Of a stretch of 64,000 nt of DNA, positions 29,265-32,837 are shown piece by piece. The DNA is from Escherichia coli 042 (lineage in GTDB: Bacteria > Pseudomonadota > Gammaproteobacteria > Enterobacterales > Enterobacteriaceae): NCBI RefSeq assembly GCF_000027125.1, contig NC_017626.1, one strand, 5' to 3'. A model generated the notes under the pieces. The model was given only the letters and a program-made list of their open reading frames with translations. It was not told the DNA's origin and did no database searches. The translations under genes were made by a program, and so were the position numbers. Each line of letters opens with the position of its first letter. Positions within the stretch are counted from its first letter, which is position 1.

Positions 29265-29344
29265 ACCCTATCGCCTGTCATTTTTTATTAACGACAATGA
29301 CTATAGGTGGTTACCTGCGAAAAATCTTAATGAAACGTGTCGTA

Positions 29345-30535
29345 TTAATGAATTTCTTTTGCCACTACTAGCGCGACACCGCTTTTACCCTTCATTTGCA
29401 GCGCATAGACTCCACCAGCCACTACCACTAATAGTGCACCCAGCAGATAAATCATTCGGTAGCCAGTATGTGCAACCATCATCCCCATCACACAGGCTCC
29501 CAGCGCCAGGCCTGCATCCATCGCATTGAAGAATAGGGAGTTTGCGACACCGATTTTATGCGGTTCCACTGAACTGATAATCTGCGTCTGAAAAACTGGC
29601 GTCACGGAACCATACCCGATACCAATCAACGCGCCAGAAACAACCATCATTATGCTTCCCTAGGTGTAGCCGAGAACCACCAGTCCAACCGTAAAGAACA
29701 CAAGGCAAGGGTAAACCACATATTTCGGTCCTTTTTTGTCGCAGACATTGCCGGTAAAGGTACGGCAGATCATCAGGAAGATAGCGTAGCAAAGCAGGAA
29801 ATTACTGGCTGCCGACATCAGGTTAAGTTCGCGTGCATAAAGCGCCAGAAAAGCAGAAACCCCGGCATACGAAAAGGTCATAAAAAAGGTGACCATCGCA
29901 AATGGCAACGCCGCGCGATCGAACATGGCGGCGAAGCCCATTTTCGGCTTTGAACCATCAGCATGGCTGATAACCGGCGGCACTGTCATAATCAGCGACA
30001 GAATAATCCCCACCGCTGCCACGCCGGTGCATAACCAGAAAGCCATATTAAAGGCCTCCCAGCGCGCCATATTCAGGCCAATCCACGGCCCGACCACCAT
30101 TGCCAGCCCCATTGCCAGAGAGAAAAAACTGATGCCCTCCCCACGTCGGGAGGCCGGGATCAGCCGCGCGGAAATCGTTCCTTTTACCGTAGTAATAACC
30201 CCGAAGGTAATACCATGAAGCACCCGAATAAAAAGCAGTGATTCAATTGAGTGGCAAAAAGGATACAACGCAGTGACCAACAAAAAGGCCAGAGAAGAGA
30301 GCACCAGAATAGTTTTATTCGAATATTTACCCACCCATTGCCCGGCAAAGGGGCGAATAACAATGGCGGCAATTAAAAATAAAGTCACCAATAAACCGGC
30401 TTTATCAGGAGAGGCATGCAAGCGGTCAGAGATATAAATTGGCAACAATGTTAGTAAAACATAAAAGACGAAGAAAATAATAAAGCTGATGATGGTTATT
30501 GCCCAAAAATCCTTCGTCCATAACTTCTCTTTCAT
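29345..30535 (-). pseudogene. MFS transporter interrupted by a single in-frame TAG stop (at 29660-29662)
   Basis: 291-aa and 101-aa ORFs are in the same frame, separated only by TAG plus 3 codons; together about 396 aa with a 12-TM-like profile. Confidence 0.65.
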
Positions 30536-30686
30536 ACCCTACCGCCTGTCAGGATGACGCACGCAGACAACACTCCCGTTACTGCGGTTGCGTCAAATTG
30601 TGATGTACTTTGCAGAACAGAAGTATAAATGGCGGCATGCTATTAGAGAAATTAATCGTTTTAATATTATTGATTAGCAAACTCTA

Positions 30687-31424
30687 ATGACTCTTACCCA
30701 AATAAATTCTTTACTCGCCGTGCTGGATTACGGTGGCTTTACTGAAGCCAGCAAGCGATTGTTCATGACGCAGTCGGCGGTAAGTCAGGCAATTGCTGCC
30801 CTCGAACAAGAACTTGGTGTGAATATACTGTTACGCGATCGCCGTAAAGCTATACAACTGACCACAGCAGGTCATCGCATTGTGCATCATCTGCGCGCCA
30901 TTAATCGGGAAGTTAACGCAGTAAAAGAGATAGCCGAGCAGGAAAAGCAGAACCCTCAAAGAACGCTGAGACTTGGTTGTTTCCCCAGCGTCTGCGCCTG
31001 TATCTTACCGGCTGTGATTCGCTACTTTGAAATTCATCATCCGAATATAAAAATTATTCCTTTTGAGGAAAATAGCACAGCGATTATTGATTCCCTTCAG
31101 AATGAATCCATTGATGCCGGTTTTGTTCATTTTCCGGTGAGCGGAATGTACTCCGTGCCCATTTATCAGGATAAATTCACCGTAGTGTTACCGCCCAACC
31201 ATGCTCTGGCAAAAAACAGCACTATTACAGTGGAAGAGTTAATGGGTGAACCATTAATTATTAGTAAAGGACGCTATGAATTAAGCATTATGGCACTATT
31301 TAAAGAAAAGAATATTACCCCACAGATAAAATATGAATTTAATCACCCGGATACAGCGATCAGTTTTATTCGACAGGGATTAGGCATCGCCTTATTACCA
31401 GAGTTAACGCTGAAAACCATTTAA
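30687..31424 (+). CDS. LysR-family transcriptional regulator, short (245 aa), divergent from the MFS gene
   Basis: N-terminal HTH (FTEASKRLFMTQSAVSQAIAALE); about 50 aa shorter than typical LysR proteins; GC content falls towards the 3' end. Confidence 0.75.
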   Translation: MTLTQINSLLAVLDYGGFTEASKRLFMTQSAVSQAIAALEQELGVNILLRDRRKAIQLTTAGHRIVHHLRAINREVNAVKEIAEQEKQNPQRTLRLGCFPSVCACILPAVIRYFEIHHPNIKIIPFEENSTAIIDSLQNESIDAGFVHFPVSGMYSVPIYQDKFTVVLPPNHALAKNSTITVEELMGEPLIISKGRYELSIMALFKEKNITPQIKYEFNHPDTAISFIRQGLGIALLPELTLKTI

Positions 31425-31546
31425 CAATAATGATACTTTCTAACATGCGTAAAGGTCTTCGTAATAAAATGAGCTAAATTTGATAGTGAATATATTTTGC
31501 AAAGATTAGATTGTATCTTGTTAACTCACACTACAAGGAATCATTT

Positions 31547-32617
31547 ATGCCAAATACATCTATTCACTTATCTCGCTGTAATATTTTACAAAATAATAAA
31601 TTGCAACCAGCAGAAGTTTACAAAGAATCACAACAAACCGCGAAACTTGAGATTTTTTGCGATGAGTTTCTAAAAATATCTCAAAGTAGATACGGGTTAT
31701 CAACCTCAGCAGACAGCATAGCTAATTTATTGGCTTTTTTCACGAAAGCCTCAGATGCAATTGATAGTATCAAGACCCAAAAAATTGACGTTCACAGTTA
31801 TGGTTTCGTACCAATAAGACATTTTGTCGAACATGTCATAACGTATAAAAATGAATTTGCAGCGGATTATGAACCCTATACCCTTACCTTTACCCGAGGT
31901 GAAAACAACGAAGGTATTTTGAGTGTCGAAAGCAAAGAAGGGTTTATTTCACAAAGAACAATAAACTTAAATGAATATGAAACTGCAATTAACATCATCA
32001 ATGAACATGTTATAAAAGAAAATATCCACAACACGGTCCAGTCACCGACAGAAAAAGACATTTCAAAAATAAACAGCTCTGATAAACCTTATAAAACCAG
32101 CAGTGAGGAAAGTATTAAAAGTCAACTTTACAGCGATCAAAAAAAATATACAGACCTGCTACTACATTCTGAGAAAAATACAGAATGGTACAAATACGCA
32201 TCCTCCGTGGAACGCTATGATAAATTCAAGAATTCTTCTAAGGAAATTAAAAATACCTACAAGCAAATTGTACAAGCGCAGAAAAAATTGAACCAAATGA
32301 AATACATAAATAAATTAAGTGGTGAGCTTATCGATATCGCCGACAAAAAGTTAGCACCATTAATAAATGATAGTTTCAGCTATACACGAGATTTCTTTGC
32401 TTACTCAAAACAGGAAAATAACATCTTCACGTTTGATAATTCTAAGTTTGAAGATCCAAAGGAAAAAAAAGGTTTAATGGTACAACACAGCAATGGACAA
32501 CTGGTTATTACTGGTGAATATTGTCCTGAAGGTGTGCAAACAGCATTCACTCAAGACCAATATGATAAATTAATAAGATACATTAATATTTTCTTTACTT
32601 TTCCGAAATGCGAATAA
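31547..32617 (+). CDS. Hypothetical AT-rich orphan protein (356 aa; alternative TTG start at 31511)
   Basis: Long ORF with AAGGA RBS 7 nt upstream of ATG; K/N/E/Y-rich, no signal peptide, no family recognised. Confidence 0.5.
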   Translation: MPNTSIHLSRCNILQNNKLQPAEVYKESQQTAKLEIFCDEFLKISQSRYGLSTSADSIANLLAFFTKASDAIDSIKTQKIDVHSYGFVPIRHFVEHVITYKNEFAADYEPYTLTFTRGENNEGILSVESKEGFISQRTINLNEYETAINIINEHVIKENIHNTVQSPTEKDISKINSSDKPYKTSSEESIKSQLYSDQKKYTDLLLHSEKNTEWYKYASSVERYDKFKNSSKEIKNTYKQIVQAQKKLNQMKYINKLSGELIDIADKKLAPLINDSFSYTRDFFAYSKQENNIFTFDNSKFEDPKEKKGLMVQHSNGQLVITGEYCPEGVQTAFTQDQYDKLIRYINIFFTFPKCE

Positions 32618-32837
32618 TACTTTACAGTATAAACTGCAATACAATTTATTATTGAACCCAATTCATACTATTTAAGGAATAACAATGCCCAGTGTTAGCT
32701 TTCTTAACGAATGAGTTTTACGCAAATATGTTGGCATCTTTTTTAACAGGATGCACCGGTTAATGAATAGAACAACCGGGAGTAACATTATTTCTCTTTA
32801 GCAGAGGATGGCGCATGAACGCCATCCTGCAATAGCA

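Follow-up and report, generated by a model that had tools for sequence, protein, structure and literature searches.

In Escherichia coli 042, the interval between inaA and glpQ carries a transporter gene and a divergent regulator gene, both disrupted, followed by a segment of low GC content, and the question is how this arrangement came about. We analysed a 64,000-nt stretch of the chromosome (the window, from contig NC_017626.1), in which the interval corresponds exactly to positions 29265-32837: the inaA start codon reaches up to 29264, and from 32838 onwards lies the stop codon of glpQ. A preliminary description had placed a divergent MFS/LysR pair and a low-GC ORF here, and all of them are present with exact coordinates. 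The genes and the segment considered are the following.

28614-29264, minus strand: inaA, intact left flank (216-aa ORF; the homologous position in 118UI holds the lipopolysaccharide kinase InaA)
29345-30535, minus strand: MFS transporter pseudogene of 396 codons, amber at codon 292 (ORFs, 118UI comparison, Pfam)
30687-31424, plus strand: truncated LysR-family regulator, 245 of 292 codons (NCBIfam, Pfam, 118UI comparison)
31422-32804, no strand: AT-rich insert, 1,383 bp retained of ~1.7 kb, 32% GC (boundaries set against an insert-free strain)
31547-32617, plus strand: orphan ORF of 356 aa, or 368 aa from a TTG at 31511 (ORF list, homology searches)
32838-33914, minus strand: glpQ, intact right flank (ORF list, 118UI comparison)

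As a reference we used 118UI, which has the same insert together with an intact MFS gene (396 aa) and an intact LysR gene (292 aa). Over ~26.8-48 kb of the window, a block of 21.2 kb, only a synonymous SNP, an amber SNP and a 483-bp deletion separate the two sequences. 118UI is close only locally, and no complete genome was near-identical to the window over 24 kb (best ~98%). The last two differences fall in the pair.

29660-29662, minus strand: amber codon, CAG to TAG (Q292*), due to G to A at 29662; when translated, codon 292 reads as a stop
31421-31422, no strand: joining point of a 483-bp deletion specific to this lineage (1 nt of microhomology; positions 4658-5140 of the 118UI locus, L001, are missing)

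The transporter gene has no uninterrupted frame of ~400 aa, since the amber at codon 292 of 396 splits it, on the minus strand, into a 291-aa ORF (29660-30535) and a 101-aa ORF (29345-29650). Its 118UI counterpart is an intact 1,191-nt MFS transporter gene (WP_000660225.1), and the change at 29662 is the sole difference between the two. Both fragments match Pfam MFS_1 (PF07690), and in 118UI, where the gene is intact, the product aligns to PRK05122 across residues 10-379, so that both six-helix halves are covered by MFS profile matches. Of the curated transporter models, the nearest were PRK05122 (an MFS subfamily), PRK12382 (for arabinose transport) and CntE (the staphylopine exporter), with scores below the NCBIfam curated cut-offs in every case (111.7 bits against 374, 86.2 against 364 and 74.4 against 235, respectively); the regulator was likewise below the cut-off for GltC (124 bits against 350). 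Since these scores are far under the cut-offs, the pair belongs to none of the named equivalogs. The MFS_1 transporter is probably an exporter.

The 245-aa regulator carries an N-terminal winged helix-turn-helix, HTH_1 (PF00126), and LysR_substrate. NCBIfam LTTR profiles align from its residue 1 and stop at about position 247 of 290-300, and the C-terminal effector-binding domain is incomplete, 47 codons short of the 292-aa 118UI allele. The regulator has only 245 aa because the 483-bp deletion runs across the LysR/insert boundary: it took the last 47 LysR codons and the first 326 bp of the insert, and 339 bp of the missing DNA lie past the 118UI LysR stop codon. Both genes are thus pseudogenes in the window, one by the nonsense mutation and the other by the deletion, and the orphan ORF is still open. 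To judge from the truncations, transporter and regulator would both have lost their function. The C-terminal MFS fragment of 101 aa starts with an ATG of its own, and MFS proteins in two pieces can occasionally work.

An MFS-LysR pair was found at the same position in ~20 enterobacterial species, including Escherichia clades, E. whittamii, Salmonella arizonae/diarizonae, Citrobacter, Kluyvera, Klebsiella spallanzanii and others. On one side the pair adjoins yfaE or inaA in all ~20 loci; about half of these loci have glpQ or glpT at the opposite end, and in none of them is the orphan present. Judged by this distribution, the pair is an ancestral enterobacterial module. The preliminary description overlooked that it is deeply conserved and is not accessory DNA. 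The conservation extends to the DNA between the two genes.

30536-30686, no strand: divergent promoter/operator region, from MFS to LysR (alignment of 17 enterobacterial loci)
30642-30665, no strand: two overlapping T-N11-A (LTTR-box-like) dyads, ATTAGAGAAATTAAT at 30642-30656 and ATTAATCGTTTTAAT at 30651-30665 (same 17-locus alignment)

The blocks conserved in the 17 loci are TTGTGA (30598-30603), GTATAAA (30623-30629) and the T-N11-A boxes, and the dyads are nearly invariant from Escherichia to Leminorella (17 species). The divergent partner gene and the T-N11-A dyads in a common control region are what is looked for in an LTTR; the LysR protein may bind these candidate dyads, and most likely it would control the divergent MFS gene via the conserved boxes. 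A promoter and terminator scan was uninformative, because it gave fewer matches than in shuffled sequence.

To the right of the pair, the GC content falls to 30-37% at ~31300-32800 (flanks ~45-55%). For the insert the values are 32-34% against 46-50% in the flanks, hence an anomalous composition. Its right edge is marked by a hairpin.

32806-32827, no strand: GC-rich hairpin GGATGGCG-CATGAA-CGCCATCC, before the glpQ stop (in K-12 and in strains that lack the insert, it adjoins the LysR stop)

We take this hairpin as a putative terminator, although the terminator scan did not call it. The ORF list and a repeat search gave no terminal repeats, integrase/transposase or tRNA as marks of a mobile element. 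Flanking direct repeats around the AT-rich segment, for which the preliminary description had proposed a search, were limited to short ones at chance level, none of them at the boundaries. No copies of the insert were found in phages or true plasmids; the sole "plasmid" match was a record of 4.9 Mb, in all likelihood a misfiled chromosome. The insert is also absent from all the syntenic loci of the ~20 enterobacterial species outside E. coli. Its composition and restricted distribution suggest a foreign origin; no donor was found. Between alleles, the dS of the insert is 0.10-0.16, similar to that of inaA/glpQ (0.08-0.15), which suggests that the insert was acquired once, long ago, and has diverged together with its flanks since then. 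Upstream of the orphan, a block of ~205 nt, deleted in the 042 lineage, is unusually conserved (it diverges by 2%, compared with 8-9% in the surrounding DNA) and contains a 43-aa ORF; the fold z-score of this block was -1.1, so the idea of a structured RNA is without support. Among known RNAs (Rfam, E <= 1), the region held only naRNA4/REP between nrdA and nrdB and one match after yfaE. The match after yfaE lies at positions 1766-1841 of L001, and one further Rfam match was eukaryotic and meaningless.

The orphan, annotated in O157:H7 as "hypothetical protein" (WP_001301786.1), lies in the window 122 nt behind the truncated lysR as a result of the deletion. It gave no match in Pfam, NCBIfam, PHROG, PADLOC or PDB sequences. 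A word-indexed search of 5.8 billion protein clusters and an exhaustive HMMER search of 1.84 billion representatives gave as significant homologues only its own copies or fragments, with at least 73% identity, and every source-named one was from E. coli. The exhaustive search also returned one weak match (E = 1.4e-4), over 47 residues of a 1,001-aa protein. The dN/dS of the orphan is ~0.6 overall and 0.4-0.75 in its better conserved thirds, against 0.03-0.13 for inaA/glpQ, and by these ratios the ORF is evolving under weak constraint. Its frame also contains a homopolymer.

32139-32146, plus strand: A8 tract in the orphan ORF, of variable length between assemblies (assembly comparison)

The tract is A7, A8 or +1 among assemblies; where two assemblies are otherwise identical, a 1-nt difference could equally be a homopolymer sequencing error. 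A second A8 tract lies at 32463-32470. Precisely, A7 in the draft GCA_036599305.1 gives a 247-aa product and a +1 variant gives a 208-aa product (P0016), and O157:H7 combines A7 with a +1 that compensates for it 35 nt further on.

Within E. coli, the same locus is found in very different states. The preliminary description was accurate in giving K-12 a short interval with a LysR pseudogene remnant: in MG1655 the interval is 462 bp long and holds yfaH (b2238) alone. This remnant derives from a 1,879-bp deletion between CAGATAAA repeats, both copies of which can be located in the window.

29444-29451, plus strand: left copy of CAGATAAA, breakpoint of the K-12-type deletion (the K-12 junction reads CCCAGCAGATAAAATGTGAATTT)
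31323-31330, plus strand: right copy of CAGATAAA, breakpoint of the K-12-type deletion (K-12 comparison)

The window keeps the 1,879 bp between the copies and does not contain the junction CCCAGCAGATAAAATGTGAATTT, at which the 3' ends of the MFS and LysR genes meet. For the species as a whole we considered 5,426 complete E. coli genomes, a collection without Shigella, and the counts are megablast-based subtractions, not a typed pangenome: the MFS gene is kept in 1,231 genomes, at least 80% of the full architecture in 710, and the AT-rich insert adjoins the LysR 3' end in 1,039, while by subtraction the K-12-type remnant accounts for about half of the collection and genomes with no LysR 3' end for about a fifth. 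Full-length genes in most strains, which would have indicated a stable locus, are therefore not the situation in E. coli. The independent lesions at the locus include the 1,879-bp microhomology deletion, IS1, IS200/605, homopolymer frameshifts and complete loss (EcN); together with these frequencies, they bear out the view of a strain-variable locus in several stages of decay. The K-12-type junction occurs both with and without the insert, hence all four haplotype combinations exist. Among the titles and abstracts retrieved for yfaH there was no paper on the inaA-glpQ locus, and literature searches with STM2280 and STM2281 (presumed Salmonella locus tags) and with ECs3121 to ECs3123 (inferred Sakai tags) gave no matches.

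Very probably, then, an ancestral module is being lost piecemeal in E. coli, with an early AT-rich insertion and two lesions private to the 042 lineage. According to this reading, the starting point would be the enterobacterial MFS_1 gene with its divergent LysR gene, which is disappearing bit by bit within the species. Early in E. coli history, ~1.7 kb of AT-rich foreign DNA would have landed between the LysR 3' end and the hairpin shared with glpQ, bringing the 356-aa orphan gene and the short conserved upstream block. Later, in the lineage of EAEC 042 (or its clone), the change of CAG to TAG would have truncated the transporter at residue 292, and an illegitimate deletion of 483 bp would have stripped away the end of the regulator and the start of the insert.

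This reading requires that the lesions are genuine and that the deletion, and not the insertion, shortened the regulator. Sequencing or assembly errors, or deliberate edits, could be suspected from the fact that neither lesion occurs in the 5,426 complete RefSeq E. coli genomes: the amber allele was found in none, and a 50-mer across the deletion junction matched none, against 1,146 for the control wild-type 50-mer. However, in NCBI, ENA and Logan assemblies the exact 245-aa LysR product is on 46 public contigs and the exact 291-aa MFS product on 52, including the finished E. coli 042 chromosome, and since they recur in this way the lesions are real and heritable. Moreover, an independent draft (GCA_036599305.1) is identical to the window over 8.7 kb spanning both lesions, bar one homopolymer A, and the truncation of the regulator was already known from the public 042 annotation (CBG35312.1, identical to the 245-aa product and named "LysR-family transcriptional regulator (partial)"), so that an artefact is extremely improbable. 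The genome paper reports 110 chromosomal pseudogenes in EAEC 042 (Chaudhuri et al. 2010, PMC2808357), and its main text contains no occurrence of LysR, inaA or glpQ. The other possibility, put forward in the preliminary description, is that the AT-rich segment itself cut the regulator to 245 aa by inserting into, or recombining with, its 3' end. The insert does start within a few bases of the LysR stop in every insert-bearing genome, homology to insert-free strains stops four codons before the stop of the 299-aa LysR form, and in the window the LysR ORF ends in insert-derived DNA (TAA at 31422-31424). Against this, LysR keeps all its 292 aa in 118UI and O157:H7, both of which have the insert, what separates the window from 118UI is a clean deletion spanning the former LysR/insert boundary, and the 292-aa and 299-aa forms differ by a 1-nt change in an A run, not by the insertion. 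The fall in GC content over the last third of the 245-aa regulator was correctly noted (0.47, 0.49, 0.39, 0.42 and 0.35 in blocks of 150 nt), but it does not mark an insertion: the dip at nt 600-750 is intrinsic to the gene, because it is equally present where there is no insert, with 0.36 in E. coli strains of this kind, 0.34 in E. whittamii and 0.35 in S. arizonae. We judge the insertion explanation very unlikely, and for the truncation step the comparison with 118UI already refutes it.

Two further alternatives concern not the order of events but their significance. The double knock-out in the 042 lineage may have been positively selected, for example if exporter or regulator imposes a cost in the gut, instead of arising by neutral decay. 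In favour of selection, two of the three differences in the 21.2-kb block otherwise identical to 118UI inactivate the pair, which covers 2.07 kb (the chance of at least two of three events falling there is P ~0.027, disruptiveness not yet required), and the module was lost repeatedly in other E. coli lineages. The test, however, is post hoc and has three events; after the loss of one partner the other becomes neutral, and no single-lesion intermediates that could order the events were seen among the public contigs. Selection thus appears rather unlikely. About as doubtful is the idea that the 356-aa orphan is not functional and is a fortuitously open frame in decaying AT-rich DNA. Its dN/dS, far above that of inaA/glpQ, the want of homologues or domains in anything searched, a frame often broken by IS1, IS200/605 and homopolymer frameshifts, and an AlphaFold pLDDT of just 39.7 from the single sequence and 40.8 from a 6-sequence alignment all go in this direction. 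On the other hand, the stop-free run of 375 codons is far beyond chance, as 2,000 shuffles averaged 75 and never exceeded 167; the length is exactly 356 codons in each of four alleles separated by 28-109 nucleotide differences, when 5.6% of random substitutions would make a stop; the O157:H7 frameshift is compensated; and residues 58-160 and 236-356 form two long, nearly invariant stretches.

A more elaborate proposal is that the insert acts as a small contingency locus, in which a young orphan protein is toggled by the A8 tract and accompanied by the conserved ~205-nt block, the deletion of that block in 042 rewiring orphan transcription, and that, separately, the transporter/regulator knock-out is adaptive in enteroaggregative E. 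coli; we consider this quite improbable. Under piecemeal loss of an ancestral module, yfaH of K-12 and the "partial" genes of EAEC 042 would be different wrecks of one regulator-transporter module. This is ordinary strain-variable gene decay, with little import beyond good annotation; still, the exact lesions are useful for pangenome curation and the locus is a worked example of recurrent gene loss. Experiments could be repaid by the LysR-MFS module, with its nearly invariant operator, and by the E. coli-only orphan, neither of them surprising in kind.

The closest known case is yfaH itself, which occupies the same inaA-glpQ position and is what remains of the same LysR gene, its final 68 codons, with 105 nt of the MFS 3' end surviving beside it. 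The K-12 locus differs by its CAGATAAA deletion and by having no AT-rich insert, whereas in the window both genes are nearly full length, the damage is a nonsense codon plus a separate deletion of 483 bp, and the insert is present. The intact pair resembles the general LTTR divergon of LysR/MFS genes, with head-to-head genes, a 151-bp common control region containing T-N11-A dyads, HTH_1 and LysR_substrate domains and an MFS_1 fold. AT-rich, lineage-restricted islets are catalogued as "O-islands" in O157:H7 versus K-12 and are typical targets of H-NS silencing. The insert is similar to the AT-rich ORFan islets of E. coli in its low GC content, Escherichia-only and patchy distribution (present in O157:H7, absent from K-12) and weak purifying selection. 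It is unlike them in having a single fixed site and no integrase, tRNA, IS or flanking repeat, and in having diverged as much as its flanks, a sign of old rather than recent acquisition.

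The stretch 29265-32837 is exactly the inaA-glpQ interval, lying between the inaA start codon, whose last base is 29264, and the glpQ stop codon, whose first base is 32838, and the flanking genes nrdB, yfaE, inaA, glpQ and glpT are all intact. The interval contains:

29660-30535 and 29345-29650, minus strand: MFS transporter gene, split into a 291-aa and a 101-aa ORF
151 bp between the MFS and LysR genes: control region
30687-31424, divergent from the MFS gene: LysR-family ORF, 245 aa
AT-rich stretch, 30-37% GC, bearing one long ORF
31547-32617: orphan ORF, 356 aa from ATG, 368 aa from an upstream TTG

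The ORFs and the low-GC stretch noticed in the preliminary description were thus found. The nrdA-nrdB spacer (about 26910-27150) holds tandem REP/BIME-type repeats matching Rfam naRNA4 (RF02564; in the homologous sequence of strain 118UI the best score is 82 bits, the gathering score being 59.5). These repeats also account for spurious, arginine-rich entries among the predicted ORFs.

Among 5,426 complete E. coli genomes the best local match to the window was 118UI, in which the interval is 4,057 bp long, versus 3,573 bp in the window; the genes annotated there encode an intact MFS transporter of 396 aa, a LysR regulator of 292 aa and a hypothetical protein. By direct comparison, 26765-31421 showed 4 mismatches to 118UI, followed by a 483-bp gap in the window and then by 31421-35337 without any difference. 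Two adjacent mismatches in nrdA and one in yfaE are synonymous; the fourth, G to A at 29662, changes transporter codon 292 from CAG to TAG. The 483-bp deletion, with a microhomology of only 1 nt at its junction, takes the last 47 LysR codons and 339 bp beyond. The new LysR stop is a TAA supplied by the insert, and LTTR profiles align the truncated protein only to about position 247 of 300.

Neither a 50-mer spanning the deletion junction nor a 55-mer with the amber SNP at its midpoint, its arms each too short to seed a match, matched any of the 5,426 complete genomes, while the wild-type 50-mer, as a control, matched 1,146 of them. The exact 245-aa product (CBG35312.1, the regulator being annotated "partial" in E. 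coli 042) is recorded on 46 contigs and the exact 291-aa product on 52, and the draft assembly GCA_036599305.1 equals the window over 8,739 bp save one A in a homopolymer. Both lesions are therefore heritable and lineage-specific, and were already flagged in public annotation.

The shortness of LysR had been ascribed to insertion of, or recombination with, the AT-rich segment. This is not supported, since the truncation is a later 483-bp deletion relative to 118UI, which bears the insert and a LysR of 292 aa. In isolate AF3, an E. coli without the insert, a GC-rich hairpin, GGATGGCG-CATGAA-CGCCATCC, stands shortly before the glpQ stop and has the LysR stop in its loop; in 118UI the LysR end and the hairpin are 1,713 bp apart, with a spacer of 34% GC. 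It is one nucleotide in an A run, rather than the insert, that distinguishes the 292-aa from the 299-aa LysR form. The GC dip taken as a mark of insertion (nt 600-750) is found also in insert-free E. coli (0.36), E. whittamii (0.34) and S. arizonae (0.35), and GC content rises again in the 3′ end missing from the window. The insert contains no integrase, transposase or tRNA, nor, with a search for flanking direct repeats having been proposed, any terminal repeats, and no phage or true-plasmid copy of its ORF was found.

At the insert start, a block of about 205 nt (4945-5150 of L001, the 118UI locus), deleted in the window between 31421 and 31422, differs by about 2% between the alleles farthest apart, versus 8-9% immediately upstream of it and 7.7% for the orphan ORF. 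Within it lies a 43-aa ORF (MTPGRNRYEAPDSLSKPIVESNDTPANSTQFTLEPFSIFKWDT) that has a ribosome-binding site of the GGAG type and is a called gene in one Logan assembly; the few substitutions in the block are mostly non-synonymous. Considered as a structured RNA, the block had a fold z-score of -1.1 and no Rfam match.

The MFS-LysR pair is a conserved ancestral module, which the preliminary description had missed. Scanning one genome per species, we found the transporter at 79-97% identity in E. whittamii and two further Escherichia species, Salmonella enterica subsp. arizonae and diarizonae, Citrobacter, Kluyvera, Klebsiella spallanzanii, Superficieibacter, Phytobacter, Pluralibacter, Pseudocitrobacter and Leminorella. 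At every one of these loci a LysR gene stands head-to-head beside it, an arrangement kept also in distant Firmicute relatives (33-37% identity). The pair adjoins yfaE or inaA on one side wherever flanks were recovered, and glpQ or glpT was recovered on the other side in about half the loci; the orphan ORF is in none of these non-E. coli loci. Between yfaE and the MFS gene, inaA is missing in Salmonella arizonae/diarizonae, Citrobacter, Kluyvera and most other genera (loci L016-L036) and present in Escherichia and Pseudocitrobacter, so inaA itself seems to have come to this site later. O145:H28 and other E. coli carry an MFS-LysR allele with only about 86% DNA identity to that of the window (1081-3314 of L007, from O145 RM12522-C8), its divergence far exceeding that of the flanking core genes; this points to either a long-standing polymorphism or acquisition from a different Escherichia lineage. 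Other divergent E. coli MFS matches are at 92-95% identity.

In the intergenic alignment of 17 enterobacterial loci, TTGTGA (30598-30603), GTATAAA (30623-30629) and two overlapping T-N11-A dyads, ATTAGAGAAATTAAT (30642-30656) and ATTAATCGTTTTAAT (30651-30665), are nearly invariant. From general knowledge of LTTRs, we infer that LysR would bind these dyads and control the transporter promoter. We assigned neither substrate nor direction to the transporter, because its top curated matches (PRK05122, an arabinose-transporter model and CntE) are all far below cut-off.

Decay at this locus takes several forms. In the 5,426 complete genomes, counted by megablast and partly by subtraction, hence approximately, the transporter is kept in 1,231, at least 80% of the whole architecture in 710, an insert adjoining a LysR 3′ end in 1,039, and at least the LysR 3′ end in 4,237. 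By subtraction, approximately 13% have the pair and the insert, 10% the pair only, 6% a deleted pair with the insert (some with IS1 in the orphan ORF), 49% a K-12-type remnant, and 22% no LysR 3′ end, including EcN-like genomes with nothing left of the pair. In K-12 MG1655 the interval is 462 bp and contains yfaH, in agreement with the short interval and LysR pseudogene remnant of the preliminary description; this state arose when 1,879 bp were deleted between two copies of CAGATAAA, which in the window lie at 29444-29451 and 31323-31330. The identical junction is found with and without the insert, so all four haplotype combinations exist, which requires either that events recurred or that sites some 1.4 kb from each other recombined. 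The orphan ORF has suffered independent lesions as well, namely an IS200/605 insertion and frameshifts in homopolymers. Together with the counts, these lesions support the proposal of a strain-variable locus in different stages of decay.

The orphan ORF far exceeds chance length, with a stop-free run of 375 codons versus a maximum of 167 in shuffles. Its 356-aa product has no relatives in Pfam, NCBIfam, PHROG, PADLOC or PDB, and no homologue outside Escherichia in 5.8 billion protein clusters (word-indexed search) or 1.84 billion representatives (exhaustive HMMER search); AlphaFold gave no confident model. Four alleles, with 28-109 nucleotide differences, all keep 356 codons, stops being expected from 5.6% of random substitutions, and residues 58-160 and 236-356 are nearly invariant. 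Selective constraint is weak, dN/dS being about 0.6 versus 0.03-0.13 in inaA and glpQ. Synonymous divergence between alleles (0.10-0.16) is similar to that of the flanking genes, which suggests that the insert was acquired once, long ago, and co-diverged with its flanks. That this ORF is flagged "frameshifted" in 118UI is an artefact of annotation: it is the reference protein, from O157:H7, that has a compensated double frameshift, and the window keeps the frame of the divergent alleles. Two A8 homopolymers lie within the ORF (32139-32146 and 32463-32470). The first varies between assemblies, A7 giving a 247-aa product and a +1 variant a 208-aa product, and O157:H7 has A7 with a compensating insertion 35 nt downstream; slippage that switches the gene on and off could explain this variation, as could sequencing error in homopolymers. 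A metagenome contig of 3.5 kb that was binned as Collinsella (L040) bears LysR and orphan genes 100% identical to those of E. coli, and almost certainly reflects contamination of the bin by E. coli.

Divergence between the window and 118UI is strongly mosaic, consistent with recombination blocks: 0 differences/kb over 30-47 kb, a single one in either of the bins at 28 and 29 kb, up to 98/kb near 12 kb (alpha-2-macroglobulin gene yfaS, 12000-13000) and 33-53/kb at 56-59 kb (56000-60000). Between yfaV and yfaY (43108-44929) lies an IS200/IS605-type element, formed by a 402-aa TnpB/InsQ ORF (minus strand) and a truncated tnpA, where K-12 has yfaW and yfaX (rhmD and rhmR); the window lineage and 118UI thus seem to have a reduced L-rhamnonate cluster.

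Over about 26.8-48 kb only 3 events separate the window from 118UI, and 2 of them disable the pair (P about 0.027 by position alone, from three events in a post hoc test). This hints at selected loss of the pair, which we hold to be unlikely. Both the pseudogene status of K-12 yfaH and the "partial" label of the E. coli 042 regulator were public already, and what is added here is descriptive: the exact lesions, the microhomology junction, the conserved putative operator and the evolutionary profile of the orphan. The phenomenon is routine gene decay beside an AT-rich islet, rather than a new kind of system.
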